A stretch of 59,532 nucleotides of DNA from IMG/VR virus record IMGVR_UViG_3300030098_005108, positions 1-59,532 of that record; one strand, given 5' to 3'. A model generated the notes under the pieces. That model was not told the DNA's origin and did not search any database. It saw only the letters and a list, made by a program, of their open reading frames with translations. Within the stretch, counting starts at the first letter, position 1. Each line of letters starts with the position of its first letter. Source of the stretch: a virus (Duplodnaviria > Caudoviricetes). The position numbers were made by a program, and so were the translations under genes. Shown here piece after piece: positions 27,501 through 42,392 of the stretch.

Positions 27501-30500
27501 TAGTAACACATGGGGTTGGGCTATTTAAAACTATGTTGGATAGGGCGGAACAAACCGATATAAGATATAGCCCTTATATTAGAAGAATATTAGAGGGTAA
27601 ATCTAAAGAAGTATTGAATAATTTAGGAGAATCTAAATCAGAAGTTATTAATCAGGTAATTGCAAATAATATAAGAAAGCAGTCTGGCTTAATAAATCGT
27701 GTTGTAAAAAAACCGATGTTAATTAAAGAGTTTAAAGAATTAAAAGAAAATACAAGAGAGAATTATTTTCTAGATAGTATAATACAGATTTCTGAAGACG
27801 AAAAAAATATTGTAATTAATAGGCAAACAATAACAGACTTTACTTCTTATAAAACTATTCAGCAAGCAAAAGATGCCTTTGCTGATCTATCTGAAACGTC
27901 ACAAGATTTAATTTTTGAGATAGAGTATCTTTTTAATTTATTTGGATATAAAGGAGGTGCTGGACAAGCCTCATCATTCGTTCCTTTCTTTGATGATAAA
28001 TATGTTGAAAGAATTAATGATGGCATGAACAAGGTTATTGAGCATAATAAAACAGCTTTTGCTGAACTTAATAATGAGGGTGTTTCACAAGAACTGCTTG
28101 ATGCTATTGAAGATGTACAAAAAAGAAAAGCAGGTCTTGACAGTTTAAGCGCTAAGAAAGAAAGAGATATAGCGTCTAAAGACAATAACAATATATATCC
28201 AAATCCTATAAAAAAACCTAAAAAGGTTATTACGGCTGACACATCTTACAATAATGATCATTTAGGAGGTGGAGTAGAATTTATGTCTTTTCCAAAGTGG
28301 GCTGCTGATAAAGGTATTGATATATCTAAAATAGAAGAAGACTCTAATACATTTAGAATACTTACGCAAAATTATAGTAAATATAAAGACCATTTAAGAT
28401 TAGTTAGAGAATTTGAAGCCACGCTAGAGAAAAAACCCTTAAGTAAATATACTATGGAGGGATTATATGATGAAGCGAGGAAGTTTAGAAAAATGGATAA
28501 TTCTGCCACTAAAGGCATAGCTTATACAATAGAAAAAGAAATAGGACAAAGAGCATTTCAAGAACAAGCTAAATATTTAAGAGACGTAGGGGCTAGTAAA
28601 GGATATGAATATAATATTCCTGGAGTAGACGGTGTAGCTCAAGATGATTTAACTAATTTTCAAGCATGGTTAGGCTCTAATAATATGACGTCTAAAAGGC
28701 CTGAGATACAGTATTTAATTAATGAAGCTCAAAAAGAATACAGAAAATATATGCGAAGCTTTAAAGAGCATAAAAATTTAATAGAAGAAAAAAATAATGC
28801 TTTAAAGAGATCAAAATTAAAAGGCCTTAGTATATTAGAAAGAGTAAGAAAAGGATTTGATTCTAATGCTCGTTATCAATATATATATGGCAATATAGCT
28901 ACTGTAGAAAATGGTAATGTTAGGTTATTTACTCCAGAAGAAATAGTAGAAAATGGAGTGGAATTAACGAGGCAAGAAGAAGAATACTATGCCACATATA
29001 AAGCTGTTGCTGAGATATTATTAGGATCAGAAGGCGGTGAGACTATAGTTCCTGGAATGCAAATGGGTACTTCTGAGAGTATGGCAAGAAGCGGCTTATT
29101 TGGTCTTTACAGCTCATCTATTGATTCTTATGACTATAATAGGGTTAAGGTTTATGGAATAGATGCAAATGGCGACAGAGCCTTAAAAACGTTTTATGAA
29201 TGGAAGTATGATGTTTATAAAGGAAGAACAGGAAAGCTTAAATTAAAATCTGGTAGAGAAATATTTGAATTAGACAAACTTAGAAGAAAAGCTAAAGAAC
29301 TTAAGGCTAAAGGTAAGCATGAAGATAATAGTAGGATTATACTGTCTGATGTAGAATATGATGCATTAGTAAATAATGGAGCAATGCTTAAGAGAATGAT
29401 TGGTTATGATAAAGTAAGCGATATTGATGCTGAGTTAATACAAGAATACGAAAGAAGAAAAGGGGTTAGAGCCCAAAACATTTCTTATGATATTAATACT
29501 ACATTATTAGAATTTACTAGAAGCCATATATTCCAACACGGTGAAGGCTTATATAAGCTGGAAGATGGACGGCCTGTAGAAAGAGAAGATCGTTTTACTG
29601 GTATGGGTAAAGTCGCAATACTTACAGATTCTATTATAGGATTTAATAAAAACTTAGATAATAAAAATGCTGTTAGATATTTAACAGGATGGTGGAAAGA
29701 AGGATTTTTAGAGAAGAAACAGCAAGTTGGTATATTTGGTAAGACAGGAGACAAGGTTATTGATACCTTTGTTAGACTAACATCTTTACGATTGCTTGGA
29801 TTTAATATGAGCATTGGTATTGGTAATACGCTTGCTGGTAAATATCAAGAATTACGTAAGCGTGGAGGAAAACAATTTATAAAAGGAGAAGCCAGGTACT
29901 GGAAAAATCTTTTTAGCTCAAGAGATATATTAAAAAAATATAGAATTATTGAATATAGTTTTGATGAATTTATGCACCTTTCTGAAAGAAAAGGAACTTG
30001 GGGCAAAATAGAAAGATGGTCTTATATGTTTATGGATGGCACAGAAAGCTATATTCAAGGTGCTGCTTTCTTGGGAGAATTAACAGATGAAGAATTTAGA
30101 ACAGGCGAGATATCAGAAGAAAGAGTAATGCATATTAATCATAAAATATCTACATTACACGGAGAAGGATATACTGCTTTAGACGCTAGTTTACTTTCTA
30201 TGTATTCTTATGGTAGAGCTTTATTACAGTTTAAGAAATGGTTTATTACTTTAATAGGAGATAGATTTAAAGCTGAAGACATAGATAGATTTGGAGATGT
30301 TAATATAGGTAGTTATAGAGCAAGCTCTGAATTTATAACAGATTTATTTAGAAAATATTTTGCTGGAGGAATAACTAAAAAAGAAATAATAGATATATAT
30401 AATAATTCTAGCGAAAAGAGAAAAAGAGAAATGCGTAATCATGTTGCTGGAATAGGTATAGGGGTTACGTTATTATCTTTAATTGCTATAATGGAAGATG

Positions 30501-30826
30501 ATGATGAGCCAGATACTAAAACTCTTAGAACGCTTAAAAAACTTTCTCATGATGTATTTATTACAACCGACCTAAGAAGGTTTGTAAATTACACTGCGGT
30601 TCCATCATCTTTTAGTACATTTAAGAATGCTAATAAAATGATCTATGAGGCCGTGAGAGACGATAAGGTTAAGCGTACTGGACCTTATGGTAAAGCGGGA
30701 TCATCACAAGCAATTAAAACTATGAGGTATGAAGTCTCTCCATTTGCAGAGGCTAAAAAAGATTTAGCTAATCTATTATATGAGGGTCCTTCTGAGAAAA
30801 AGGAAACTAGTTCTTTAATTAGATAA
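18581..30826 (+). CDS. Virion RNA polymerase polyprotein (two-barrel RNAP + zincin domain), 4081 aa
   Basis: GTRVP (26303-26317) followed by WGADLDGD (DLDGD at 26435-26449) mirrors beta-prime R-P...ADFDGD; HEAGH at 22421-22435; hydrophobic Gly-rich N-terminal region. Confidence 0.85.
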   Translation: MADNDYTSGLNDILGNLSKPTPIPQSPEQDIKNLYEGEMQSTPSGLGGLIENSIQSNTINDIAFDQYAQGVAAGQMGDAMYAGLDAERYGPAPQQQITDPNAMIGSTGQRVARGLKAGWGDLVSGTGDTIDWISAAIKPGEGDLTTSVGSYLKKVGTEYQNENALILAEDLQEIEWHDMFDGEFWSSKMSRLVPYALSFILPSGVGAVGATRMLGRFGPTMLKSMKESGKFGRMSRGGGKGIGGVDISKAGRAGFKGQAGSGVLGQIGIDLGKQGYKPTKLLRNTTAFIGAGTAGNLAEGAYLSGEAYQEMINEVDENGQPMFTPQEAAHHAAGVMVDNAAWIGVDAMQYALLFGGLGRGVMGRLLKSTVTKKPFGENMKALTGMLARRAADTPVAATYLSAEALTEGFQEVFQEWAKYAEIQEAKGEDWDSWTTWMKEAPLGENAMLRDVFWSSFGLGAVMGGARGYYDAYAERKKKLDDKIDGWNNIIELAKEGERNPRIYQKKYGEAIDNSLADTVWDYYGDGSVAMAMIDNYVKDKLMTEELAEERKSLIENMEKMYEKHTINSGLTEAGAKQAFRVEVVLSDLNRQESALKERYQGWIKQQKEIFKNDKDKLNKILEQGEIEFKGEYRAPVEDEVSLETIRFQKDQFNQRLEDIYARRLDQAPVAKSTGKRDARFKKEGLDQEKYEKWTQEGEKQKQEREKAEAEAKAKEKTGIFETVKDLGGKAVEGVKSLFGKAKESQAWKDVAEATKGIATKSWAAMGEALKKGAEKRTESMARRMVIEEGKKRVNRTNYSKAIEEIKNGKINSAKQILKQGVIVDKNDIENIKDLYNVDDAGANAIINKILDNDIKNIEAKLKENPNLTGEELKELIIKEMTSEKGKEAISSILNKVKERFKKKDTKKTEEETIDVEYEDVTEKTLTEKEYLEKLKKDRKKDGSIVTILDENSFKTEIFKKGKLIKKENIDDIKVGDAIMNKQGTSFVVIEIKEDPTVMGGKIFKSRQALMTQELKMKQGIYLAERVSEKITSKKSQADVKKKDQPRVVPKTEQYQKTEASLEKGARQIKKADIQKGTGPNYFIKTPEGETIQYRDFDNISDKYVLDEGANVELRLRKPIKGQEGVVEVDGKLYFQFDNLLYETEIEVVINGEVVGKVAQRDYKAKEPTKKAKKKDTRKIDQLIGAVKESKEKIKKYFTRAQKDIPDYNPESLTIDPLYRHGTGIEARTIVEDIVQKRFPGSKGFVAYTALTDDFGQEASSLAIGSTIFINENSVKQSDIIHEAGHIYYNLMGDTPLMKKIKKLLPKSELYQKTKKDYPELTLMKFKDLNMTLGLIYREIFKNTNKEYDSFPDLVDIANNIAAAEKAGDSARVNDLFVSLRTQLKINGGKDVRVDRQKHLLEETFTRTLESFSYGTVDAVVKGSAAQKQLEKDLIQFYKETKKLATEEEARKLLDLSVDNIASLDLEAAMKHILLDFNSADRTVPYIMNSAYGPINKANKKILRNTASYSAVSFYISENIQLEDNEQIVKNVMQLIADDSALTLDNKDVKDLEQYIHSIIIQLKDNKNLKEADRILDERLSGIGLGGKHKEGENVKEASEETDRDKEKLRVLPTTTTNFIKKIVEYYNRDKDEKSMISSKKILSAIMSLAKETKNNPYSFIIEMRKSLNPNIQNMVMTMDQIYSQVEGLTNPKRYTNAKLVELKGPIEGINIEVLAHNVLSIGDNGQRAWYRNLSTNMTIEKKVLDSILKGLEDNTQKEKDIAEVYNNLFDDTNYLQSIKDKKKVYRRNDIIARNNSAEKILNILFDLENGEFINKDVLLNNQIMFNGKKQFIHNILFDHTIQKQFTTDKGKTIKLKKPNIILKNKDIFTVFDTRNDQKKFTHKGVNDYQAKGVFRDKQIEIRNIVTQGLVMSRAENYITMIDNVEQDGVSVLNKDNGFWSRTKNVFEVANSGVKFGEKDLINPEHNIFVAMAQLQGKEEGKNYLNPFNITVHSGMMRYFEKDTHGLKNKEGLARKANDVNPNELTVGDFFMFLSRYNEGKRNNEKTIYYDQPIAVFADKSRRYYIQSIIAHDAKSRKALLSRIAKNPAYKNKDKNKYKLGDEVFPYKIKNNRLVGEDMNTLIKNWRDYMQKNRELFLNNKDLKKVLDSKRQPTNEVLEAFLTSYIANKFMAQQLFVHDHRQSDNEIDYIKRAAGAIAGHTNFDRNTSVEFFVTNDYYVAKDDKTIFTEEGAKVEFGENWKKEVAVENDAMGYVLPKQAELIRAKYGDSQKVGSVFKFVYHYTELDGPLKDRTTYMKFAVHTLTKEMEDSSPYLKNLGEALRERTKNVRKASKENGKGVGNLIIGASKSAAKLYAGEQRFIHDITSIDNMEEMFDKQDEIYKDAEGYRGLSGEGFGIQLELDKQTDERFFPSQLFYNLLNNITEENRESVARMLQLREKVMKANNEKRNSSIIEVGENKNIFKERDSFKSSVTADIYDILVESSYDNLHPMYPYLNAPHNAVATGRITHKGTKMYTKGSIGYQSSSIGMGLRSYQKGLYKGQANEYIKNEDIVVSEAIVPGYLKDDGVKVGDLFIGTRVPAHGKVSSSVFIVKGFHKQVEGSPNSNVTIPAWVSKFWGADLDGDSIHMNFRWTNEEVAKREWKKDSNEFFDRYVALVSQKEKEKEIKADIDFVGPAKNAIELRDKIYGVPKTSKESQLTPEGDGKMFEDNVPAKHLVGRIAALMRTFNVFSNSQDRLPVKISIKNKEGVVEHDKFFDNPSLENNIGNWYGVAQLLNIALDNAKYQYASQLGMNQESIFSYVLLRRLGYSLNDLTLMFNAPFVKKYLEYKRAKSKNYISKDSDIMEMFADKNSEFKKNDFADFMEENQMIPDIKSIIKNERVDIDINNITNKDQQQKIIELIYILDNYDSVLVSPFSKAFTVHQTIEKNPLELNKIHSAIETIINNTINGQRNTILGWGGEYLNYELENNTINNPIVTHGVGLFKTMLDRAEQTDIRYSPYIRRILEGKSKEVLNNLGESKSEVINQVIANNIRKQSGLINRVVKKPMLIKEFKELKENTRENYFLDSIIQISEDEKNIVINRQTITDFTSYKTIQQAKDAFADLSETSQDLIFEIEYLFNLFGYKGGAGQASSFVPFFDDKYVERINDGMNKVIEHNKTAFAELNNEGVSQELLDAIEDVQKRKAGLDSLSAKKERDIASKDNNNIYPNPIKKPKKVITADTSYNNDHLGGGVEFMSFPKWAADKGIDISKIEEDSNTFRILTQNYSKYKDHLRLVREFEATLEKKPLSKYTMEGLYDEARKFRKMDNSATKGIAYTIEKEIGQRAFQEQAKYLRDVGASKGYEYNIPGVDGVAQDDLTNFQAWLGSNNMTSKRPEIQYLINEAQKEYRKYMRSFKEHKNLIEEKNNALKRSKLKGLSILERVRKGFDSNARYQYIYGNIATVENGNVRLFTPEEIVENGVELTRQEEEYYATYKAVAEILLGSEGGETIVPGMQMGTSESMARSGLFGLYSSSIDSYDYNRVKVYGIDANGDRALKTFYEWKYDVYKGRTGKLKLKSGREIFELDKLRRKAKELKAKGKHEDNSRIILSDVEYDALVNNGAMLKRMIGYDKVSDIDAELIQEYERRKGVRAQNISYDINTTLLEFTRSHIFQHGEGLYKLEDGRPVEREDRFTGMGKVAILTDSIIGFNKNLDNKNAVRYLTGWWKEGFLEKKQQVGIFGKTGDKVIDTFVRLTSLRLLGFNMSIGIGNTLAGKYQELRKRGGKQFIKGEARYWKNLFSSRDILKKYRIIEYSFDEFMHLSERKGTWGKIERWSYMFMDGTESYIQGAAFLGELTDEEFRTGEISEERVMHINHKISTLHGEGYTALDASLLSMYSYGRALLQFKKWFITLIGDRFKAEDIDRFGDVNIGSYRASSEFITDLFRKYFAGGITKKEIIDIYNNSSEKRKREMRNHVAGIGIGVTLLSLIAIMEDDDEPDTKTLRTLKKLSHDVFITTDLRRFVNYTAVPSSFSTFKNANKMIYEAVRDDKVKRTGPYGKAGSSQAIKTMRYEVSPFAEAKKDLANLLYEGPSEKKETSSLIR

Positions 30827-31257: not shown

Positions 31258-31617
31258 ATGGCAAACGTAGACGATTTAGTGAAGAAAGGTTTTGGGCAAC
31301 TAGGATCTGTATTCTCAGATGCCGATGGGGCAATTACACCTCCAACTAATAAAGTATTTGTAGCTATAACATTTTTATCAGATACTACCCTAGACTCTTC
31401 TGGAGGATTAGTTGCTGATACAAATTATAGAAGCTGTGAATTTATTGGCACAAATGCTGCTGCTCATGATGCCGCTTCAGCAACTGTAACTTCTGGTACG
31501 GGAGGTGATCAGGTAGATGTAAGTAACACTTTCCCTAAGGGTGTAACTATTTTTGGTAGATGGACATCTATCAATATAGGAACTCCAGGCAGTCTTATCG
31601 CATATATAGGAGAATAA
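31258..31617 (+). CDS. Small virion protein, paralogue 2
   Basis: Tandem duplicate of 30860 by shared motifs. Confidence 0.6.
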   Translation: MANVDDLVKKGFGQLGSVFSDADGAITPPTNKVFVAITFLSDTTLDSSGGLVADTNYRSCEFIGTNAAAHDAASATVTSGTGGDQVDVSNTFPKGVTIFGRWTSINIGTPGSLIAYIGE

Positions 31618-32615
31618 TGTTAATCTTAGGAGCTAATTTAATATCTAGCGCAGGAGTAAGCGCAAAAAAAAGTGAATTTTCACTTCTCTTTGATGGCGAT
31701 GATCAGTATATAAAAACTGGCGGGGATAGCTCAACAAAACCTGTTAACGCAGTAACAGTATCCGCTTGGGTTAATATGGATACTGCTGACGGTGGTTATG
31801 GTTGGCCAAATCCAGATGGTAATAATGATCACATGCAAGTTATTGTAGGTTGTATTGCTAGTGGTGGTTATGCGCTTGGTATACAGTATGGCGGTACTGC
31901 TAATAATCCATTAACATATGTATTTGCAAATGCAAATGTAGATGACAATGGAACTGGTTTGGCGGGTAAATATTTTACTAATACTTTTTACAACAGACAT
32001 AGTCCTTATGAACAAAAGGCTGACTCTACAGCCGCAGATTTAAACGCGTCATCTGATGCCACGGCTGATGGGCCAGCTGTTGGAGCTGCTGGTTGTACTT
32101 GGGGCGGTTATACATCTAGCGTTGGTGGTTATACACTGCACAATATAAGAAACCTAACAGGATGGAATCATCTAGCAATGACTTATGATGGAACCAATGG
32201 TATAATGAAGTTATATATTAACGGGTCATTAAAAAGAATAGCTGACACTGAAGTTGGTAGTGAAGGGACCCCTAATGAGATGAATTACCATAGTAATTCC
32301 GCTATGGAAGTAATGATTGGTGCTGACGTTGGAAGTGTTCCTTCTGGTGGTGCTGATTTTATGGATGGACTAATAGATGATGTAGCTATATGGGATGCAG
32401 CTATAGATGCTGATGGAATAGCAGAAATTTATAATAATGGGGCTGCAGGAACTAATTTAACTAGTGCTGTTGGAGATTACGATAATCAAGATGACTTGCA
32501 AGGGTGGTGGAAAATAGAAGAGGGAACTGGAACATCAGTGGCAGATTCATCATCAAATTCTAACACAGGAACACTAGTTAATACGCCAACATGGTCAACA
32601 AATACAGCAGGATAA
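31617..32615 (+). CDS. LamG/concanavalin A-like domain receptor-binding protein
   Basis: SLLFDG-DQY, TVSAWV, WNHLAMTYDG, LYING, GLIDDVAIW, GWWKIEEGTG; start moved to the TAATG overlap at 31617 (MLILGANL). Confidence 0.8.
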   Translation: MLILGANLISSAGVSAKKSEFSLLFDGDDQYIKTGGDSSTKPVNAVTVSAWVNMDTADGGYGWPNPDGNNDHMQVIVGCIASGGYALGIQYGGTANNPLTYVFANANVDDNGTGLAGKYFTNTFYNRHSPYEQKADSTAADLNASSDATADGPAVGAAGCTWGGYTSSVGGYTLHNIRNLTGWNHLAMTYDGTNGIMKLYINGSLKRIADTEVGSEGTPNEMNYHSNSAMEVMIGADVGSVPSGGADFMDGLIDDVAIWDAAIDADGIAEIYNNGAAGTNLTSAVGDYDNQDDLQGWWKIEEGTGTSVADSSSNSNTGTLVNTPTWSTNTAG

Positions 32616-33007: not shown

Positions 33008-34069
33008 ATGTTAGGATTGGGATCTTCTTTAAATAAAGGCGAAACCCCTAGTGGATTTGGTCCAGATCAATTTGTAATGAAAATTACAACAAATATGGGT
33101 GGTGACTATCCTTACGATGGCGTTAGTAACAATAGCGATTCAACTTCAATGAAATTTTATATGCCAAGAGTGGGTACAAGTACTAACAAAGGTCATATAG
33201 ATATTGATTGGGGAGACGGAAATACTGATACAGATGTTGTGGATACGATTACTCATGATTATGGTACGGCTGGTACATATACTATAATAATTACACCTGG
33301 AAGTTCGTATGTTAGAGGAACAGCAGCGGGTAATGTGGAGTTTCCTCCTTTAAATAGATGGCTTTTTGGAGGAGAATTTGATTGTAGAAAAGTAATAGAA
33401 ATATTAAATTGGGGTTGTTTTGGTAATAATAGCTCTTCTGTTTTTAATGGCTGCTCAAATATGACATGCTCGGCAACTGATGAGCCCTGGGACTTTACAT
33501 ATACAAATCGTAAACCTACAAACATGTCAGTTTACTTTAGGAATTGCTATTCATTTAATGGCACTATGTCTAATTGGGCAACATATACATCAACTGCAAA
33601 TAGACTTGACAGTTTCTTTTTTGGGTGCACTAGTTTTAATCAGCCCTTAACTGGATGGGACACTTCTAATGTTACTAGACTAAACCAAATGTTTCAAGCT
33701 GCAACAATTTTTAATCAATCATTGAGTCATTTTGATACTAGCAGCGTGACAACTATAAATAAAATGTTTAATGATAACACAGCTTTTGATCAAGATCTTG
33801 GGGGTTGGGATATAAGTAATGTAACTGATTTTGTTAACTTTATGAATAGCGGAGGGCAATCATGGTCTGCGACTAATTATAATGCAACTTTAATAGGCTG
33901 GGCAGCCCAAACGGTATCACAAAATGAATCTATCAGTTTTGGCGCTGCAGATACTTTAGATGGAGATGTTGGTGCGGTAAGTAACAGTAGCAATGGTGAG
34001 GATGCTAAAAACTCTTTAATAGCTGATGATGGTTGGACGATAACTGATGGTGATGGAACTGAAACATAA
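33008..34069 (+). CDS. PKD-like + DUF285/BspA-type repeat receptor-binding protein
   Basis: IDWGDG...THDY---GTYTI (PKD-like); FNQPL-GWDTSNVT---MF repeats; MLGLGSSL N-terminus. Confidence 0.8.
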   Translation: MLGLGSSLNKGETPSGFGPDQFVMKITTNMGGDYPYDGVSNNSDSTSMKFYMPRVGTSTNKGHIDIDWGDGNTDTDVVDTITHDYGTAGTYTIIITPGSSYVRGTAAGNVEFPPLNRWLFGGEFDCRKVIEILNWGCFGNNSSSVFNGCSNMTCSATDEPWDFTYTNRKPTNMSVYFRNCYSFNGTMSNWATYTSTANRLDSFFFGCTSFNQPLTGWDTSNVTRLNQMFQAATIFNQSLSHFDTSSVTTINKMFNDNTAFDQDLGGWDISNVTDFVNFMNSGGQSWSATNYNATLIGWAAQTVSQNESISFGAADTLDGDVGAVSNSSNGEDAKNSLIADDGWTITDGDGTET

Positions 34070-34297: not shown

Positions 34298-35425
34298 ATG
34301 AAAAATATACTATATATAATATTTCTTTTTTTAGCATCTTGCACAATTCCAAAAAAATGTTGTGCTCAAATTAATTATTTAAATTATTTAAAAGATGTTG
34401 ATTTAGAGGAAAATTTAAAAAAACATTTAAAGTTTTCTACAGTTTATGGGGCTATTAATGGAGGGACCTCTGTGTCAGATGTTAAAAATTTCTCTATTAC
34501 TTCTGGGCAGTTACAAGAAGAAATAATAAAAACGCCTTATGATTATTCTTTTACTGTTGGAATAAGAAAAATAGCTAGATTTGGATATGAGAATAAGGCG
34601 CAAACTTTTTACGATGGAACTGAATCTAATTATACGGACGCGGCAACTGTAGGTAAGGTACAAGGATTTGAATATTTATTTGAAGTAGATTACGCAAGAC
34701 AACAAGGCGTGGACTTTATAGATCAACATCACTTTATTAGATACAGTTCCGATGATGACTGTAATGGTCCTTTATGTGTAGATCATTTTGCGGCTAAAGT
34801 AGAATATGTAAAAGATGGTTTTGCCGATGTAGAATATTTTGAATTATCAGAAAGATATAGAATGAAAAGGAATGCTAATTTAGCATTCAGTATAGGCCTT
34901 GCTCATAGATTAGCAGAGCCTTATGGCTATAATCCACTAGAAGAATGGATCTTGGATAATGGAAGTATACATTACACTTACTTAGCAATACAAGAGGGTT
35001 ACAGTATTGATGTTGAAAAGAGTGAGTATAAAGATCCAAGTGGAGCTATAGTCGCAACTAATCCAGAAGTCTGGAAAGAAGTAGTAATTCCCCAAGTCAT
35101 ATCTGACTATACTATTAAGAAAAGAGATCAATTATCCAAACAAATACAACATTCTGTTATAATAGGATTTGACTACTATAAATATACAAAGAGTAAATGG
35201 CTGCATGCTTGGGGTAATATACTTCCTTATCATTATAATGATGGTAGCGAATTTTCATATCACAACTTTAACAATGGAAAACAATGGTACGATTATTCAG
35301 GAGGATTAATTTATGGAATAAAAGTAAACAGAAGCTTAGGGTATTTTGTAGAAGCAAAATATAATAAGTATTGGAACAGAGAGTGGTATGATTTTAAACT
35401 TGGCGTAAATTACGTCATATTTTAG
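34298..35425 (+). CDS. Putative outer-membrane beta-barrel protein
   Basis: Signal peptide (LASC lipobox or CCA|Q); alternating amphipathic strands; C-terminal FKLGVNYVIF resembles a BAM beta-signal. Confidence 0.65.
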   Translation: MKNILYIIFLFLASCTIPKKCCAQINYLNYLKDVDLEENLKKHLKFSTVYGAINGGTSVSDVKNFSITSGQLQEEIIKTPYDYSFTVGIRKIARFGYENKAQTFYDGTESNYTDAATVGKVQGFEYLFEVDYARQQGVDFIDQHHFIRYSSDDDCNGPLCVDHFAAKVEYVKDGFADVEYFELSERYRMKRNANLAFSIGLAHRLAEPYGYNPLEEWILDNGSIHYTYLAIQEGYSIDVEKSEYKDPSGAIVATNPEVWKEVVIPQVISDYTIKKRDQLSKQIQHSVIIGFDYYKYTKSKWLHAWGNILPYHYNDGSEFSYHNFNNGKQWYDYSGGLIYGIKVNRSLGYFVEAKYNKYWNREWYDFKLGVNYVIF

Positions 35426-35448
35426 TATTAATTTAAATAAATAAAAAA

Positions 35449-35859
35449 ATGAAAAAAATATTTTTAACAACATTAACAACTTGTTTATGCTTATTTGCAT
35501 CAGCACAATTTTCAGTAATATCTTCTATTAATATACCAGAGGAGGGAGAGGAGTTTTCTGTAAATAGCATAACAGATAATATGGGTGCTGGCTATCAAAT
35601 AAATGATAAAATAATGGCTGGTGTAGTAAAAAATGGTGAAAATTATGATGTCTTTGGAAGATATTATTTTGAAAATATATACGTATCTTTACAATCACCA
35701 ACAGAAGAGATGTCTGAAAACATGAATATAGGTGCTGGATACTCTTATAATATTTGGGATAAATTATATATAGAGCCAAACTATTCTATGCCGATGAAGG
35801 AAGATGAAAACGGAGAAAGAGAAGGAAAGTTCGTTATAGGAATAGCTTATAAACTTTAA
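35449..35859 (+). CDS. Small outer-membrane beta-barrel protein
   Basis: Signal peptide ASA|Q; GAGY strands; YIEPNY; ends FVIGIAYKL. Confidence 0.7.
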   Translation: MKKIFLTTLTTCLCLFASAQFSVISSINIPEEGEEFSVNSITDNMGAGYQINDKIMAGVVKNGENYDVFGRYYFENIYVSLQSPTEEMSENMNIGAGYSYNIWDKLYIEPNYSMPMKEDENGEREGKFVIGIAYKL

Positions 35860-35869
35860 AATAGACAAT

Positions 35870-36238
35870 ATGTATACATATAATATTGAATTACTAAGAG
35901 TTGTTGATGGAGATACTATTGACGCTAAAATAGATCTAGGGTTTGATGTTAGTGTAAAAAAAAGAGTGAGATTTATGGGGGTTAATACCCCCGAATCTCG
36001 CACTAGAGATTTAGAAGAAAAAGCTAGAGGCTTAGCTGCCAAAGATAGAGTTAAGCAATTACTAAAAGGAAGCGATACAATTCAGCTTGTATCACATGGG
36101 GTAGGTAAATATGGAAGATGTTTAGGAGAATTAAATATAGATGTAGTAGATGGTAAAAAGAATTTAACATTAGTGAGTGTAAATGAATTATTAATTAAAG
36201 AAGGCCATGCGGTAGAATATCATGGCGGTAAAAGATAA
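35870..36238 (+). CDS. Thermonuclease (SNase)-family nuclease
   Basis: RVVDGDT, VR--GVNTPE, GKYGR-L, VNELLI-EG-A motifs. Confidence 0.9.
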   Translation: MYTYNIELLRVVDGDTIDAKIDLGFDVSVKKRVRFMGVNTPESRTRDLEEKARGLAAKDRVKQLLKGSDTIQLVSHGVGKYGRCLGELNIDVVDGKKNLTLVSVNELLIKEGHAVEYHGGKR

Positions 36239-36243
36239 AATAT

Positions 36244-36414
36244 ATGAATTGGATAAATAGTTGGAAACAAGGAAATAAAAAAGAAAAATACGAAATTACT
36301 TTAAGGTTAGGAAAACTAACTTTATTTGAATTAAAAGCATGTTTATTTTGTGAAACAGGCTGTTCTAAAAAAAGAGTTAGATTAATTATATTAAATTTTG
36401 GTTTTGAGGCGTAA
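36244..36414 (+). CDS. Small hypothetical protein (56 aa; not in ORF track)
   Basis: MNWINSW...CLFCETGC...LNFGFEA; TAATG-coupled to 36414. Confidence 0.55.
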   Translation: MNWINSWKQGNKKEKYEITLRLGKLTLFELKACLFCETGCSKKRVRLIILNFGFEA

Positions 36415-36647
36415 TGACAATGAAAGACGACATAGCGCTAATGGAACATAGAATGAATTCAATGGAAGATAAATTAGATAAAATGGATGCTAAGTTAGAT
36501 ATGTTAACTGAAAAATTACTTGACCCAGATCACGGAGTAACAGCAAGAGTAAACAGAAATACGTCTTATCGTAAAATTATGAGCAAAGCTTTATGGGCTA
36601 TATATATAGTTACGATAGGCTTGGTTATTAAGATGTTTTGGGAATAA
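36414..36647 (+). CDS. Coiled-coil protein with C-terminal TM helix (XhlA-like topology)
   Basis: Heptad repeats followed by ALWAIYIVTIGLVI. Confidence 0.55.
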   Translation: MTMKDDIALMEHRMNSMEDKLDKMDAKLDMLTEKLLDPDHGVTARVNRNTSYRKIMSKALWAIYIVTIGLVIKMFWE

Positions 36648-36928
36648 TGGCAAAAGAATTAAACGAAGATACTAGTTTTAAAATAAGTTTAAAAACTTTA
36701 GCTGGAATAGCGGTTCTTATATTTACTATTGTAGGAATGTGGTTTGCATTACAAGCGGACATAGAAGAGGCTAGGCAGCTTCCTGAGCCGCCACCACAAG
36801 ATGTTACTAGAATGGAGTTTGATATGAAAGATCAGATGATACGTAATACCATTATGGAAACCAAAAAAGATGTAGAAGAGATGAAAGAGTCTCTTGAAAA
36901 AATAGAAGATAAACTATATAATAGATGA
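36647..36928 (+). CDS. Inner-membrane-anchored coiled-coil protein
   Basis: N-terminal TM helix, Pro linker, coiled coil; start moved to the TAATG overlap at 36647. Confidence 0.6.
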   Translation: MAKELNEDTSFKISLKTLAGIAVLIFTIVGMWFALQADIEEARQLPEPPPQDVTRMEFDMKDQMIRNTIMETKKDVEEMKESLEKIEDKLYNR

Positions 36929-37284
36929 AAGAAGAAATTACATGGAGGATGTATAGTATGTATTTTTTAATTATAGTTTTAATTTTACTGTGTAGCGGGG
37001 CGTTTGCTCAGATTCAAGTAACTCAATTTAATGCTGGTTGGAATTCTGCAAACGAAGTTCCTTGGGTACACAAACTTACTGAATGTAATACAATTTCTTA
37101 TGTTGACGTAAGTAAGCAGGCAGAGATGGCAAAGAAACATAAAATAGCAGTTGTTCCTACAATTATAATATTTAAAGATAATATTGAAGTGGCTAGATTT
37201 CAAGCTGATCTTAGTTTTAAAATGGTAGCAACAAGAGAAGAAGTACAAGAAGAAATAGATAATCAATTAATGAGCGATTTTTAA
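36925..37284 (+). CDS. Secreted thioredoxin-fold protein lacking CxxC
   Basis: Signal peptide AFA|Q; FNAGWN in place of F-A-WCxxC; YVDV...I-VVPTIIIFK...E-ARF cis-Pro strand. Confidence 0.7.
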   Translation: MKEEITWRMYSMYFLIIVLILLCSGAFAQIQVTQFNAGWNSANEVPWVHKLTECNTISYVDVSKQAEMAKKHKIAVVPTIIIFKDNIEVARFQADLSFKMVATREEVQEEIDNQLMSDF

Positions 37285-37285
37285 T

Positions 37286-37513
37286 ATGTGGAGTTTATTT
37301 AAAGATAAAAATGAAATAAATGAAAAGAACGTAGTTGGATTTGCGTCTTTTGTAGTTATGGTATTATTTGCTATAGCAGATCTTACAACTAGCTTTATAT
37401 TTGTAGGTGAAGAAAGCAAACTAGTAATTAACGAAGTAATATATAATTCATTCGTGTGGGTAACACTAGGGTGTTTTGGTATTAGTTCTTTTGAAAAAGT
37501 AAAAACTAAATGA
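37286..37513 (+). CDS. Small two-TM membrane protein (holin-like)
   Basis: Two hydrophobic helices and a basic C-terminus. Confidence 0.5.
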   Translation: MWSLFKDKNEINEKNVVGFASFVVMVLFAIADLTTSFIFVGEESKLVINEVIYNSFVWVTLGCFGISSFEKVKTK

Positions 37514-40143
37514 TGAAAAAATTATTATTATTGTTGTTGCTGCCTATATTTAGTTTTGGGCAAAACTGTGTTCCTACTTTAACAGTTAAAGATACCTGTT
37601 CATATGGCTATGCTAGAACATGGATAGAATGGAACTCATTAGATAGTGGTTGTGCAATACAAACCATACACAAAGGAACGCCTTACAATACATACTCTTG
37701 GGGCTGGAACAGTTCGGATACTAACTATATGTTTATTAATAATTACAGTCCTGGTGATCCATTTGCTAGCTCAGAAGGCTTTTGGGTTGTATTTGAAATG
37801 ACTGATAGCACTTTTACTGATACAGTTTTTGCAAATCAATTTACTTGTATTGAAGGGTGTATGGATCCTACTTATGATAATTACAATCCTTTAGCTAATA
37901 TACCAGATGTTTGTTTAGCAATACCTCCACCGCAAGACGATTGTTTTGATGCCACAAAAACATCTATAACAATAGAATTAACGCCAGATCAGTATGCAAG
38001 CGAAACATCTATAGATATAATAAACCAAGATGATAGCGTCTTATTTAATGTTGAAAGGCCTTTTTTTAGCAGTATTGGTACGGGTAATTTATATACAAAT
38101 ACAATATGTGTTCCTATAGATGATACTGTTAGATTCGTTATACGTGATTCATATGGTGACGGAATATGTGGATCTTGTTTCGGAGGAGTTGATGGTAGCG
38201 TTTTAGTTACAGATGAGTGTGGAGATACTATATATAGTTTAACAGCTGGAGATAATTTAAATTTTGGTGATGCAGACACTTCAGGTGTTTTTGTAATGAA
38301 AGATTGTAGCTGGATACCTGTTTTTGGTTGTCCTAATCCAGCTTATTTAGAATTTAATCCAGCTGCTGATTCTATGAATCCAGCATTATGCGTTACACCA
38401 AGGGTTGTAGGCTGTATGGATACAACTATGTTTGATTTCAATCCTTTAGCTAACGTACCGCTTATGGAAGACAGTTGTAATTATCAATTACATTTAACAG
38501 ATGGCGGTGGTGATGGATGGAATGGTGCGTATGTTGTTGTTGTTCAGTTGGGCAATATTTTTGGTCCTTATACCAATATAAGCTCTTCTGTAGAAATAAT
38601 ATCTTTAAATTTAAAATCAAACCATCCAGTTACTATTAGAGCATACAGCCAAACAAGTTCTGATGCTACATTAGACCAAGTTGGTTTTAAATTAATAAAT
38701 CCAGAAGGAAATATTATATTATCAGGAGGTACAAATCCTTGGGGCGATATGATAAGAACATTTCCAGACAACTATATAGCAATACCAAATTGTCCTACTA
38801 TATGCGATCCTTATGTTTATGGATGCATGGATGCTTTAGCTTATAATTATAATAATACGGCAAATACTAGCGATAGTAGCTGTTATTATAATCCAGGATG
38901 TACAGACCCGCAGTATTTAGAATATTATACTCAGGGCTTTTCAGCTGACTATAATGATGGCTCTTGTATAACACAAGCTGTTTGGGGCTGCACAGACCAA
39001 CATGCCTTTAATTATGATCCTGCGGCTAATTTAGATAATAGCGGGTGTATACCCGTTATACTTGGGTGTATGAATGATTTAGCTTTTAATTACAACCCTA
39101 ATGCAAATACTCCAGATACTTGTATACCTATAATTGAGGGGTGCACATCACCCATAGCTTTAAATTATGATTCTTTAGCTAATACAGATGATGGTAGCTG
39201 CATAGGCGTGACTTACGGATGTACCGATACAACAATGTGGAATTATTCTCCTAACGCGAACGTAGATGACGGATCATGTATTCCTTACATATATGGATGT
39301 ACAGACCCTACAATGTGGAATTATAATTCTAGCGCAAATACAGACAATGGTAATTGCATAGCATTTATTTATGGGTGTATGGATACAATAGCGTTTAATT
39401 ACGATCCATTAGCAAATACAGACAACGGAACTTGTATTCCTATTATATTAGGATGTACAAATCCTATTGCCTTAAATTATTGTGATTCTTGTAATACAGA
39501 TGATTTTAGTTGTATATTACCAATCTATGGTTGTACTGATAGCACAATGTTTAATTATAATCCCTTAGCAAATGTTGACAATAATTCTTGTATTCCTTTT
39601 ATTTATGGCTGCACTGATCCTAGTATGCTTAACTACGACCCACAAGCAAACACTGAAGATTTCAGTTGCATTGCTTATATCTATGGTTGTATGGATAGTA
39701 CTGCTCTTAACTATGATTCACTGGCTAATACTGACAATGGTTCGTGTATTACTATTATTCAAGGATGTATGGATGTCAATGCGTGGAACTACAACCCAGA
39801 AGCAAATATGAATTTTGGTCATGATTCTTTAGGGTGTCTATATGCTGCTAATTGTACTGCGACAGAGCCTGGAGAGCCTTTCTTTTTAAATGATCATTGT
39901 TATGCTTGGGTTATATCTGTAGATGAATATTGTTGTGATAATGAATGGGACACAATATGTCAATTAACATATGATTATTGTGCGGGTACTTATACGGGCC
40001 CTTTATTAGCTAGAACTATAGAAAACGGTAAGCTATTAATGGTTACAGATTTACTAGGAAGAAAAACAAAAGAAGAAAAAAATAAATTACTTCTTTATAT
40101 TTATGACGATGGTAGAATAGAGAAAAAAATAAAAATAGAATAA
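37510..40143 (+). CDS. Secreted Cys-repeat protein with T9SS-like C-terminal domain
   Basis: Signal peptide SFG|Q; DSYGDG and DGGGDGWNG beta-sandwich motifs; 16 GCxD/N...NY-P-AN-DDGSC repeats; C-terminal TDLLGR...YIYDDG-IEKKI. Confidence 0.75.
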   Translation: MMKKLLLLLLLPIFSFGQNCVPTLTVKDTCSYGYARTWIEWNSLDSGCAIQTIHKGTPYNTYSWGWNSSDTNYMFINNYSPGDPFASSEGFWVVFEMTDSTFTDTVFANQFTCIEGCMDPTYDNYNPLANIPDVCLAIPPPQDDCFDATKTSITIELTPDQYASETSIDIINQDDSVLFNVERPFFSSIGTGNLYTNTICVPIDDTVRFVIRDSYGDGICGSCFGGVDGSVLVTDECGDTIYSLTAGDNLNFGDADTSGVFVMKDCSWIPVFGCPNPAYLEFNPAADSMNPALCVTPRVVGCMDTTMFDFNPLANVPLMEDSCNYQLHLTDGGGDGWNGAYVVVVQLGNIFGPYTNISSSVEIISLNLKSNHPVTIRAYSQTSSDATLDQVGFKLINPEGNIILSGGTNPWGDMIRTFPDNYIAIPNCPTICDPYVYGCMDALAYNYNNTANTSDSSCYYNPGCTDPQYLEYYTQGFSADYNDGSCITQAVWGCTDQHAFNYDPAANLDNSGCIPVILGCMNDLAFNYNPNANTPDTCIPIIEGCTSPIALNYDSLANTDDGSCIGVTYGCTDTTMWNYSPNANVDDGSCIPYIYGCTDPTMWNYNSSANTDNGNCIAFIYGCMDTIAFNYDPLANTDNGTCIPIILGCTNPIALNYCDSCNTDDFSCILPIYGCTDSTMFNYNPLANVDNNSCIPFIYGCTDPSMLNYDPQANTEDFSCIAYIYGCMDSTALNYDSLANTDNGSCITIIQGCMDVNAWNYNPEANMNFGHDSLGCLYAANCTATEPGEPFFLNDHCYAWVISVDEYCCDNEWDTICQLTYDYCAGTYTGPLLARTIENGKLLMVTDLLGRKTKEEKNKLLLYIYDDGRIEKKIKIE
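38821..39837 (+). repeat. Tandem array of 13 approximately 26-aa disulfide repeats
   Basis: GC(T/M)(D/N/S)xxAxNY(D/N)xxANxDxGSC repeated in the translation of 37510..40143. Confidence 0.85.
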
Positions 40144-40151
40144 TAAAAATT

Positions 40152-40382
40152 ATGAGTATATTAACGACTATAGACGGAGTGCCTTTATTTTCAACTTCAA
40201 CAGAAGCTTTAGCTTGGGGTGCTCAAAGAGGATTGTCTGGGTATCATACGCATTCCTATCAAGGACAAACAGGTTATATGGGAGGCTTAACGCATGGCGC
40301 TTCTAATAATACAAGTAATAATAATTCGTCAAATCCAAGGTCTTCAAGTGGAGGTAATGGTTCTGGCGGAGCATCATATTAA
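40152..40382 (+). CDS. Small His-motif protein with Ser/Gly/Asn tail
   Basis: LFST-TEA...GYHTH...YMGG-TH; resembles DUF3721-like motifs but lacks the Cys residues. Confidence 0.5.
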   Translation: MSILTTIDGVPLFSTSTEALAWGAQRGLSGYHTHSYQGQTGYMGGLTHGASNNTSNNNSSNPRSSSGGNGSGGASY

Positions 40383-40393
40383 AATTTAAAATT

Positions 40394-40780
40394 ATGTTAG
40401 GACAAATATTTTCTAGTGGAGCTTCTGATCTTATTAAAGGAGTCGGTGGAGTAATAGATAATTTACACACCTCTAAAGAAGAAAAACTTGAGGCAGAAAG
40501 AAAGATAAAAGAATTGGTTGCTAATTATCAAATAGAAATGGAGAAAAACATTACTAGTAGATGGGAGGCAGATTTAAAATCAGACTCTTGGCTTAGTAAA
40601 AATGTAAGACCATTAGTGCTAATATTTTTAATAATATGCACTATGTTATTAATATTTATAGATGCAGGAGCATTAAATTTTGAAGTTAAATCTTCTTGGG
40701 TGGACTTATTACAATTAGTATTAATAACGGTAATTGGGGCTTATTTTGGAGGAAGATCTTTAGAAAAAGTTAAAAAATAA
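40394..40780 (+). CDS. Holin (3TM / GTA-holin-like)
   Basis: TSKEEK, RWEAD--SDSWL-KNVRP, YFGGRS-EK motifs; TM helices. Confidence 0.8.
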   Translation: MLGQIFSSGASDLIKGVGGVIDNLHTSKEEKLEAERKIKELVANYQIEMEKNITSRWEADLKSDSWLSKNVRPLVLIFLIICTMLLIFIDAGALNFEVKSSWVDLLQLVLITVIGAYFGGRSLEKVKK

Positions 40781-41047
40781 ATGGAAGATATAGGAGAAAA
40801 TGCTGAAAAACTATTATATGAATCAATGGTAAACTCCTATATGATTATAACAAATAAATTATCTTTTGATGAGCTGTTGGATTACAATGGGTGCTCCTTA
40901 CCCTTTAATCCTAAAAAAAATATAAATAACAAGGTTATTGACAAAATAATTGATTATTTTTGTACATTGGAAGAATATGAAAAGTGTGGAGAGCTTAAAA
41001 AGTTAAAAGAATCAAAAAAATATAAGAAAAATTTCATAAATTTGTAA
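40781..41047 (+). CDS. Hypothetical protein with UVR-like motif
   Basis: YF---EEYEKC-EL motif. Confidence 0.55.
   Translation: MEDIGENAEKLLYESMVNSYMIITNKLSFDELLDYNGCSLPFNPKKNINNKVIDKIIDYFCTLEEYEKCGELKKLKESKKYKKNFINL
41037..41044 (+). promoter_or_regulatory. Bacteroidota -7 promoter element
   Basis: TAAATTTG upstream of the ATG at 41061. Confidence 0.55.
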
Positions 41048-41060
41048 AAAATAAAAAATA

Positions 41061-41450
41061 ATGGCAAAAAATTATACATTAAACTATAGCTTAAACATGA
41101 GTGCGGCTTCAGCGTCAGGCTATTCTCAATCACAATCAGGTTCTGCCACTTTAAATATTACAGGTGTTGATCAAATAGCAACAGGAAGAATAGATGTCGC
41201 GCATGACGGAGACTCAACAGTAATGGCTGCTCCAGGACATGGAAGATTTATATATGTAAGAAATTTAGATGACACAAATTTTGTAAAAATATACGATGGA
41301 GCATCTTCAGCTGCTGACTTAATAGGTATATTAGAGCCAGGTCATTTTTTAATGACGGTAATAAGAGGCACAGGAACTACAGTTGCAAAAGCAGACACAG
41401 CTACAGTAACTATAGAGTATGCAGCAATAGAAATAGATTCAAACGCTTAA
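41061..41450 (+). CDS. Small beta-rich virion protein
   Basis: FIYVRNLD...ILEPG; paralogue of 41467 and 4428. Confidence 0.6.
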   Translation: MAKNYTLNYSLNMSAASASGYSQSQSGSATLNITGVDQIATGRIDVAHDGDSTVMAAPGHGRFIYVRNLDDTNFVKIYDGASSAADLIGILEPGHFLMTVIRGTGTTVAKADTATVTIEYAAIEIDSNA

Positions 41451-41466
41451 AATAAAATAAAATAAT

Positions 41467-41895
41467 ATGGCAACACAATCATTATCGGTAACAGTTTCAG
41501 GATCTTTAACATTAACAGATTCAGAAGGAAATCAAGTATGTTCATTTACTCCTTCTTTTACTACAGATAGCACAACTGTAGACTCAGCGTTGATATCTAC
41601 AGGAGAAATATTAACTAACGGTACTTCAGATACTACAATAAATTTAGCAAGTCACAATAAAGACATGATATTTACATTCATTAAAAATGTAGATACAGAT
41701 TATCCAGTAGCTGTAAAGCCAGACGGTGATGTTATAGCGAATTTAAAACCAGGAGAGTGTATGTTTTCTCCAATTCATATAGATGGGGCTGGAGACGATT
41801 CTGCTAATTTAGATCTAGCAGCAACGACTGCAGCACAAAAAGTTCAATACTTAATTTGTGATGGTCCTGATACTGGAATAGCATCAGATGACTAA
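41467..41895 (+). CDS. Small beta-rich virion protein
   Basis: FIKNVD...NLKPGE; paralogue of 41061. Confidence 0.6.
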   Translation: MATQSLSVTVSGSLTLTDSEGNQVCSFTPSFTTDSTTVDSALISTGEILTNGTSDTTINLASHNKDMIFTFIKNVDTDYPVAVKPDGDVIANLKPGECMFSPIHIDGAGDDSANLDLAATTAAQKVQYLICDGPDTGIASDD

Positions 41896-41912: not shown

Positions 41913-42392
41913 ATGAAACTTAAAGTATTAAGATTTAGTAGCCAGGAGGATAGTACTTCTGGCTTACTTTTTTTAGAAGGAGACCTAGGCCTAGAATTCT
42001 TATGTTATACATTAGAGGATGAGCATAGGGAAGATAAAATAATGGGAGAGACTAGAGTGCCTGCGGGTACTTATCAAATTAAATTAAGAACCGAAGGGGG
42101 ATTTCATGAAAGATACAAAAAGAAGTATGGTAGTATGCATAAAGGCATGCTACATGTCACTAATGTGCCTAATTTTAAATGGATTCTTATACATACTGGT
42201 AATACTGATGAGCATACTGCTGGATGTTTACTTGTGGGGGACTCGCAAGAAAATAACAATATCAGCAAAAATGGCTTCGTTGGCAAATCAGTTAATGCGT
42301 ACAAAAGAATATATCCAGATATTTCTAAAGCATTAATTAAAGGAGAAGAAGTGACTATTGAATATATAGATTTTGACAGTGTTCCTGAATAA
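41913..42392 (+). CDS. DUF5675-family protein (L,D-transpeptidase-like fold, putative endolysin)
   Basis: CYTLED, ETRVPAGTY, ILIH-GNT---T-GCLLVG. Confidence 0.8.
   Translation: MKLKVLRFSSQEDSTSGLLFLEGDLGLEFLCYTLEDEHREDKIMGETRVPAGTYQIKLRTEGGFHERYKKKYGSMHKGMLHVTNVPNFKWILIHTGNTDEHTAGCLLVGDSQENNNISKNGFVGKSVNAYKRIYPDISKALIKGEEVTIEYIDFDSVPE

Follow-up and report, generated by a model that had tools for sequence, protein, structure and literature searches.

A conserved trio of genes for predicted envelope proteins beside the lysis genes of marine phages

What might a phage do with a cluster of genes for exported proteins, placed between its last structural genes and its lysis genes? The question is raised by positions 34298-40143 of IMGVR_UViG_3300030098_005108, a viral contig of 59.5 kb, estimated to be 88% complete and called here the window. 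The genes of this span (A to J; Table 1) are tightly packed or overlapping and lie on a single strand. A reading made from the sequence alone had taken the span as one dedicated system, either for remodelling the surface of the infected cell or for disrupting the outer membrane in place of spanins. We find that three of the genes, encoding a predicted outer-membrane barrel (A), a small predicted inner-membrane protein (F) and an exported protein of thioredoxin fold without the CxxC motif (G), form a conserved unit, which in most cases includes gene I. We tentatively connect this unit with the passage of the outer membrane at lysis.

Conservation of the A-F-G unit

Signal peptides were searched for in 74 non-overlapping genes of the window, as a positively charged N-terminus followed by an uncharged hydrophobic core and by a small-x-small motif with Gln as the next residue. 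This simple scan flagged exactly four genes, A, B, G and I (starting at 34298, 35449, 36925 and 37510), and left the remaining 70 unflagged. All four fall inside the span, and the scan thus confirms the four Gln-exposing signal peptides that had been proposed. The Gln site is retained in 86 of 88 homologues of A, 18 of 19 of B, 75 of 77 of G and 51 of 55 of I. Cleavage is predicted to take place at these sites (CCA/Q in A, ASA/Q in B and SFG/Q in I, the slash marking the cut). A Gln at position +1 is the Bacteroidetes 'Q-rule'. This rule was noted earlier for proteins of Porphyromonas phages (PMC10367356; this and the other sources below are cited for the passages concerned only). Protein A also contains a lipobox-like L-A-S-C, a motif present in 48 of the 88 homologues, and some homologues may be lipoproteins instead of being cleaved at CCA/Q. 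The possibility that A, G and I are ordinary virion parts was considered and dropped, as the conserved Sec signals and Gln sites oppose assembly in the cytoplasm.

The best viral contigs retrieved via A (80 loci) were screened by tblastn with the proteins of the window. A was present in all 80 loci, F in 74, G in 71 and I in 65, the last count including repeat-driven matches. Genes B, C (the SNase gene), D, E, H and J were each found in 15 to 28 loci and at shifting positions. Genes of the backbone occurred in just 0 to 25 loci (the holin in 25, the 4081-aa protein in 14), and tblastn with the structural proteins of 399, 652 and 685 aa gave no match in any of the 80. Among the loci without F or G, five (L012, L044, L065, L077 and L081) lie on contigs that stop within about 1.5 kb of A; in three others (L008, L033 and L061) F is cut and G is absent. 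In locus L054 the sequence downstream of A is long enough to contain F and G, yet neither is present. The genes are ordered A-F-G-...-I or F-G-I-A, with G always directly after F.

Clustering of 1313 open reading frames (ORFs) from 92 loci and the window (93 sources) placed A in 89 sources, F in 79, G in 77 and I in 55. Across backbones the identity of A, F and G is 65-72%. On four contigs from metagenome-assembled genomes (MAGs; L088, L090, L092 and L093), A is 30-33% identical, F still comes directly after it, and G comes after F wherever the contig extends; L088 carries A-F-G without any I-like gene. In a variant seen in the metagenome contigs, the end of A is joined directly to the start of F and B to E are skipped. 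This variant is weak evidence because the flanks of the joint are short, but it agrees with the loci. We conclude that the conserved unit is A-F-G, mostly accompanied by I, and regard the remaining genes (B, C, D, E, H and J) as accessory inserts. The genes of the region recur in other phages, whose lack of them would have refuted the sequence-only reading; its idea of a single dedicated system stands for A, F and G, with I in most loci, and falls for the six accessory genes. Protein A is also widespread, with 3209 homologue clusters in a 90%-identity collection, all of them metagenomic and on contigs of at most about 90 kb, and with 470 confirmed matches on viral contigs.

The idea that host DNA was inserted here, or that the assembly is chimeric, is largely refuted, and we regard it as extremely unlikely. 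Dozens of independent viral contigs show the same order of genes, and in GC content the region is like the remainder of the window. The junctions between the upstream gene and A, and those of A-B-C, D-E-F, H-I and I-J-holin, are bridged by exact contigs that come from four runs of two studies (one of these runs may be the source sample); this speaks against the chimera, host insert or misassembly that had been named as a danger for the proposal. The stretches without a single long exact contig coincide with high-depth shared segments and weigh neither way. A bacterial origin is favoured by several further copies of A in MAG bins and by two Flavobacteriaceae MAG contigs (L092 and L093), on which distant A-F-G genes stand beside bacterial genes (assigned by eye as fabH- and htpG-like) and two Flavo-1 RNAs; this copy suggests either a Flavobacteriaceae host or a remnant of integration. 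When genomes around one Flavobacteriaceae MAG were searched, the A profile had a match in 1 of 401 genomes at the level of the family, 1 of 401 at that of the phylum and 2 of 101 at that of the genus, and from this rarity we take the A family to be essentially phage-borne. The feature shared by the two positive MAGs has the coordinates 5336-5413, 8676-8751 and 9764-11658 in L092, and about 1.2 kb of non-coding DNA upstream is about 95% identical between both MAGs.

The abundance of the genes in samples was followed through contig depth. In four marine runs, the summed depth of the conserved parts of the module was 10-40x that of the strain-specific flanks and backbone, which indicates that the high-depth genes (segments in Table 1) are common to many co-occurring genotypes.

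Predicted structures of A, F, G and I

A model of A, computed with AF2 from an alignment of 51 homologues, has 12 long strands and a mean predicted local distance difference test score (pLDDT) of 65; an extra, part-helical region of about 75 residues lies at 208-282. The top Foldseek matches of the model were exclusively outer-membrane barrels. In the VIA structural search 12-stranded barrels were the best matches, with Tsx at Z 16.5 (root-mean-square deviation 3.6, 200 residues aligned), EstA at Z 15.1, KdgM at Z 15.0, NanC at Z 14.8, NalP at Z 14.2 and OMPLA at Z 12.1; LpxR was matched as well. The C-terminal residue is Phe in 68 of 88 homologues and Arg, Lys or Asn in 20. A signal peptide, a barrel and a C-terminal aromatic residue, as expected of an outer-membrane barrel, were thus all found, the barrel in a model of pLDDT 65. 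Of the two barrel-like proteins announced by the sequence-only reading, A holds, its top Foldseek and best VIA matches being outer-membrane barrels, and B is a lead (see below). An enzymatic function of the barrel is conceivable, given the many invariant polar residues of A and its resemblance to OMPLA and LpxR.

By sequence, A found no match in Pfam, PHROG or NCBIfam, and its profile gave nothing below E 0.4 against PDB sequences. It falls outside the hidden Markov model (HMM) families Tsx, KdgM, OMP_b-brl, Phage_OMP PF24653, PorP/SprF and FadL/PorV. Ten distant homologues gave no match to any outer-membrane protein (OMP) family, just four unrelated matches at E 0.03-0.09, and tblastn of A and F against GenBank phages returned no match. 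A PorV or PorP/SprF fold was not among the listed structural matches of A, which does not exclude these families. Features from the ESM-Atlas set A among OMP families, PF24653 included, which we take as a lead only. Compared with Tsx, KdgM, NanC, the autotransporter translocators and OMPLA, A shares the overall barrel (Z 12-16.5 over 170-230 aligned residues), but the identity is 5-12%, A belongs to none of the sequence families and its helical insert at 208-282 is extra. With the outer-membrane barrels known from phages (lambda Lom, the cyanophage Phage_OMP PF24653 and the OMPs of huge phages) A has in common a signal peptide, a barrel and a place in the late region near tail genes; it differs from them in lacking HMM membership and in having 12 strands where they have 8 or 6. 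Unlike the huge phages, the phages with A measure about 50-90 kb, and A is always accompanied by F and G, apart from the loci listed above.

Gene F starts at ATG 36647, as in 51 aligned homologues, and the alternative start TTG 36638 is wrong. Its product has a conserved N-terminus of 16 aa, a transmembrane (TM) segment at 17-35 that was flagged by the scan, a Pro-rich linker and then a helix some 40 aa long. The mean column identity in the alignment of 51 sequences is 72%. The best family match was to phrog_1009 (E 4e-4), and the profile found nothing meaningful among PDB sequences. The sequence-only reading had counted three small TM or coiled-coil proteins in the region. A TM segment was flagged in F and H; in E a hydrophobic stretch is seen by eye and lies below the threshold.

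Protein G was modelled by AF2 with a pLDDT of 80, and all 50 of the 50 listed Foldseek matches were of thioredoxin family or fold, with TM-scores by target of 0.5-0.68 for most. An alignment of 58 sequences shows W-N-x-x-N in place of the CxxC active site, with both Asn invariant, a cis-Pro motif V-P-T that is invariant or nearly so, and an invariant C-terminal M-S-D-F. The CxxC-less thioredoxin fold that had been proposed for this gene is therefore confirmed by model, structural search and alignment. G resembles the thioredoxin family in its fold and cis-Pro loop; unlike the family, it has both active-site Cys replaced by Asn, is exported, ends in M-S-D-F and scores 22.8 bits against PF00085, below the cutoff of 23.5. 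Among GenBank phages it matched Brevibacillus phage thioredoxins only (E 6e-3). One fused or longer G, a 340-aa protein with AAA-type Pfam matches on a 1.9-kb contig, was set aside as a miscalled or chimeric gene. A complex prediction for F (residues 36-93) and G (29-119) gave a score of 0.01; controls were not run, and the result weighs neither way on binding.

Protein I, the frequent fourth member, has 52 Cys residues, and a repeat of about 26 aa occurs in it at least 13 times. Of the 13 units matched by regular expression, 11 form one tandem run of 26-residue units, in agreement with the earlier description of an 877-aa Cys-repeat protein. Common to the I-like proteins are a signal peptide, a variable part at the N-terminus, the Cys repeats and a tail that is conserved. 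A MAM domain was found in the N-terminal part of two of nine homologues scanned, and other domain types elsewhere. The tail is short (about 45 residues with strand-like segments) in 48 homologues. In L007, L051, L053 and L068 the positional orthologues of I carry instead a canonical type A C-terminal domain (CTD) of type IX secretion systems (T9SS), PF18962/TIGR04183, with 35-46 bits (cutoff 27) and 31-41 bits (cutoff 23). The proposal that I is a T9SS cargo is thus upheld for these four orthologues and not demonstrably for the I of the window itself, in which no T9SS sorting domain was detected in Pfam (to E 0.1) or NCBIfam (to E 1). Comparison of the short tail with the four canonical CTDs by hhalign was not significant (probability 4%, 17 columns). 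The sequence of I gave nothing meaningful against the PDB, and only repeat-driven matches among GenBank phages, namely a 'virion structural protein' of Synechococcus phage S-CAM3 (27% identity) and a marine virus single amplified genome. Of 80 viral contigs selected through the holin (L098-L177), 70 reach less than 4 kb beyond it on the upstream side and so begin in or near the I gene, which suggests that this gene is a hypervariable island at which assemblies break.

One phage-encoded T9SS cargo has been reported, in 'Cryophage', where it was called unique at the time (PMC7468147). As in the present case, the 'Cryophage' cargo and the Q-rule proteins of Porphyromonas phages (PMC10367356) come from Bacteroidota phages and combine Sec export with Gln at +1, as far as these sources describe them. 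The 'Cryophage' cargo has further in common with I the type A sorting domain, seen in the four I orthologues, and its variability between variants. It differs in that it consists of glycoside hydrolases, whereas I is of the Cys-repeat/MAM type and is tied to A-F-G, and the I of the window has a shorter conserved tail with no detectable CTD.

Lysis neighbourhood and possible function

The structural genes end, in most loci, with a giant ORF of 2,200-4,100 aa, and the module comes immediately after it. Among 33 loci with at least 5 kb of downstream sequence, 31 have a gene of the holin family, of Peptidase_M15_3 or of DUF5675 within 5 kb downstream, and these 31 span four backbone classes. L084, one of the two exceptions, carries a PG_binding_1 and Amidase_2 gene directly after G; in L088 a Peptidase_M15_3 gene stands directly before A. 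In these two divergent loci the trio is thus in direct contact with an endolysin gene. The DUF5675 protein of the window is a candidate endolysin, since it occupies the slot held by Peptidase_M15_3 in relatives (L003 18058-18510; L088 9462-9917). The content of this slot is a non-orthologous swap between relatives.

A search of the coding strand of the window for lipobox ORFs returned none besides A, which leaves the window without a canonical o-spanin or u-spanin. With this result and the position beside the lysis genes, the earlier idea of a non-canonical outer-membrane disruption gains support. G was tried as o-spanin and rejected, as its signal peptide has no conserved Cys and 75 of 77 homologues have the Gln site. 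Nor does A look like an o-spanin, which would be a small outer-membrane lipoprotein encoded beside, across or inside the i-spanin gene: it has 375 aa, is barrel-like and shows the lipobox-like motif in 48 of 88 homologues only. F may resemble an i-spanin, most of which is a periplasmic coiled coil behind an N-terminal TM domain: its TM segment is followed by the Pro-rich linker and the helix, with a predicted periplasmic part of about 58 aa. Two-component spanins such as lambda Rz/Rz1 are partly comparable. As predicted for F and A, they have a small N-in protein with a periplasmic helix and an adjoining protein targeted to the outer membrane, and they too lie beside holin and endolysin genes in overlapping reading frames. 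They are unlike A-F-G in that the outer-membrane partner here is no small lipoprotein, a thioredoxin fold is an obligate third member, the periplasmic part of F is much shorter than in known i-spanins and conservation is high. About 15% of phages have been reported to lack spanins, and one of these uses a cationic peptide for outer-membrane disruption (10.1101/515445).

We consider it possible, if short of probable, that A-F-G serves a lysis-linked step at the outer membrane, in the slot where other phages carry spanins. F would be anchored in the inner membrane with its N-terminus inside and its Pro-rich linker and helix in the periplasm, A would sit in the outer membrane as a 12-stranded barrel, and G, having lost its redox cysteines, may be a periplasmic adaptor or chaperone. 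The three would act once the endolysin has degraded the wall, and I would accompany them as a variable Cys-repeat protein on the surface or in the medium. Whether the trio amounts to a new class of barrel-based, trans-envelope machinery for outer-membrane disruption in Bacteroidota phages, replacing spanins and disruptins in an abundant group of marine crAss-like phages, is doubtful; in such a device the anchor in the inner membrane would be joined by a pseudo-thioredoxin as adaptor and by a 12-stranded barrel, perhaps one that is enzymatic or perturbs lipids.

Several points weigh against a role in lysis. We found no homology of A, F or G to lysis proteins, and the 58 or so periplasmic residues of F are few for spanning the periplasm. 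We know of no spanin system with anything like a barrel of 350 aa or a thioredoxin fold (see PMC6139136). Spanins are usually very diverse, whereas A, F and G keep their high identity across backbones. The adjacency to the lysis cassette is itself weak evidence, this being a common gene order after the last structural genes; the loci are interrelated, so that their counts are not independent; and the model of A is of moderate confidence only. Of 10 loci selected through the holin and extending at least 4 kb upstream of it, 8 contain none of A, F and G, and holins of this family, 84-91% identical, are thus present in other kinds of phage without the trio. Three such loci (L116, L135 and L164) belong to a phage type with GroEL/GroES-like genes, have a holin 84-90% identical and no A-F-G in the locus; they carry a lipoprotein and Gln-site proteins of their own on the other strand. 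Finally, Bacteroidetes phages are reported to use unimolecular spanins (PMC12596118).

The same proteins could act on the surface of the infected cell. A (with B, possibly a small barrel), F, G and I would then alter or cover receptors, and further phages, or progeny meeting debris, would fail to adsorb or inject. Phage-encoded outer-membrane barrels are described as numerous, many of them in huge phages, and for lambda Lom, binding to LamB and a block of superinfection have been reported (bioRxiv 10.64898/2026.10.24.761521). The hypervariable N-terminal part of I on a conserved tail has the pattern of a surface protein in an arms race, contigs often break in its region, as seen with the 70 holin-selected contigs, and its four orthologues with canonical CTD are bona fide T9SS cargo, i.e. 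bound for the cell surface; the trio also comes after the giant virion protein in most loci. This account is nevertheless rather unlikely. Exclusion genes are usually sporadic and fast-evolving, whereas A-F-G is obligate and slowly evolving; it is not obvious why an outer-membrane blocker should need a partner in the inner membrane and a thioredoxin fold in the periplasm; a late position beside lysis genes is late for exclusion; and L088 holds the trio without an I-like gene.

If I is instead the protein that the trio serves, A may be its translocator or anchor, G its chaperone and F its tether, in a private device that complements or replaces the host T9SS. An I-like gene is found with the trio in 55 of the 93 sources (order A-F-G-I or F-G-I-A), the short tail of the 48 homologues stands where the four orthologues have their CTD, and A matches 12-stranded autotransporter translocators, namely EstA and NalP. 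This export function is improbable, as A-F-G coexists with the canonical-CTD orthologues of I in L007, L051, L053 and L068 and does without I in L088, the resemblance of the short tail to the CTD is not significant, and no Pfam sequence link to PorV, PorP/SprF or TPS transporters was found. We judge it very improbable that A is an auxiliary porin like Tsx, KdgM or NanC, raising the import of nucleosides or sugars. The nucleoside channel Tsx is its best structural match, followed by KdgM and NanC, and cyanophage OMP-like genes are stated to occur in phosphate-acquisition contexts (bioRxiv 10.64898/2026.10.24.761521), but a fold match carries no functional proof, A has no sequence similarity to the three families, and neither a late position next to lysis genes nor obligate partners such as F and G are expected of a porin.

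Other genes of the window, and significance

The + strand carries all genes from base 1 to about 46.8 kb, in tight packing. The muzzle protein encoded in the first part of the window (Table 1) identifies the window as a marine crAss-like phage, an assignment made from this protein alone, and the host is therefore probably a member of the Bacteroidota. The T9SS tails on four I orthologues are a second indicator of the host phylum. For a crAss-like phage the size is modest, only about 60-70 kb. The DUF285 protein upstream of A has no counterpart among the 80 related loci. Whole-region megablast against GenBank phages gave no match, and a DnaB search found no close relative. No tRNA was found in the window, L092, L093 or L097, and no Rfam family in the window; a scan for promoters and terminators gave no more sites than in shuffled sequence.

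Among the accessory genes, C is confirmed as the SNase nuclease noticed earlier, since it matches PF00565 with 41.3 bits against a gathering cutoff of 21 (E 2.4e-10) and phrog_452 with E 1.3e-37; its position varies between loci. B is in several loci found on the opposite strand, in another region of the genome. It has no Pfam match and a weak match to NF049866 (E 0.002, far below cutoff), and falls in an ESM-Atlas cluster with OMP_b-brl in 19% of members; it is possibly a small outer-membrane barrel. E, where present, always lies just upstream of F and gave weak matches only, e.g. to phrog_937 (E 0.025). In one backbone class, a small protein encoded between G and I (L022 11401-11640, a cluster present in 17 loci) has a sub-threshold match to PAP2 phosphatase (24.4 bits, cutoff 27.2), and the same class carries a DUF6321 gene (L022 7276-7635).

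Table 1. Coordinates of the genes and segments discussed, in positions of the window (aa, amino acids; loci, the 80 loci retrieved via A)
Feature	Position	Strand	Description
crAss-virus muzzle protein	6423-13352		2309 aa; PF25731, 451 bits, E 1e-134
4081-aa protein	18581-30826		neighbour of the muzzle gene; no Pfam match
Laminin_G_3 (LamG) protein and DUF285 repeat protein	31560-32615 and 33008-34069		just upstream of A
A	34298..35425	+	exported, 375 aa; predicted 12-stranded outer-membrane beta-barrel; core member
B	35449..35859	+	small exported protein, ASA/Q; accessory, 19 loci
C	35870..36238	+	predicted SNase-like endonuclease, no signal peptide; accessory, mobile position, 24 loci
D	36244..36414	+	56 aa; accessory, 28 loci; no Pfam or PHROG match
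E	36414..36647	+	77 aa; N-terminal helical part, C-terminal hydrophobic tail; accessory, 15 loci
F	36647..36928	+	93 aa; predicted bitopic inner-membrane protein; core member
G	36925..37284	+	exported thioredoxin-fold protein without CxxC; core member
H	37286..37513	+	75 aa; small membrane protein (TM flagged); accessory, beside I, 18 loci
I	37510..40143	+	exported Cys-repeat protein, 877 aa, SFG/Q site; frequent fourth member
J	40152..40382	+	76 aa; between I and holin; accessory, 17 loci; no Pfam match
Holin	40394..40780	+	phrog_3427, E 2e-29; PF11351, E 2.6e-4, below cutoff
Two small paralogous proteins	41061-41450, 41467-41895		between holin and DUF5675; family in 38 sources, 1-3 copies
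DUF5675 protein, candidate endolysin	41913..42392	+	PF18925, E 5.6e-29
High-depth segments	34600-35400, 35800-36200, 36600-37400, 39400-39800, 40200-41000		cores of A, SNase, F-G, I tail and holin

Precedents for the components exist singly, as phage OMPs, phage T9SS cargo, Q-rule proteins and lysis without spanins. We found no description of the A-F-G trio in the literature searched, which is not proof of absence, and no such trio in GenBank phages; the obligate combination of a barrel, a bitopic protein and a Cys-less thioredoxin fold seems to be undescribed. How Bacteroidota phages breach the outer membrane is poorly known, and the trio offers a concrete target. The marine crAss-like phages that carry A are common, as the numbers of its clusters and viral-contig matches indicate. 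If the trio is a lysis device, it would be a third solution beside spanins and the disruptin. If it serves receptor masking or T9SS display, lytic marine phages would rebuild the surface of their host. Either way, A-F-G provides three small, well-conserved and expressible proteins.

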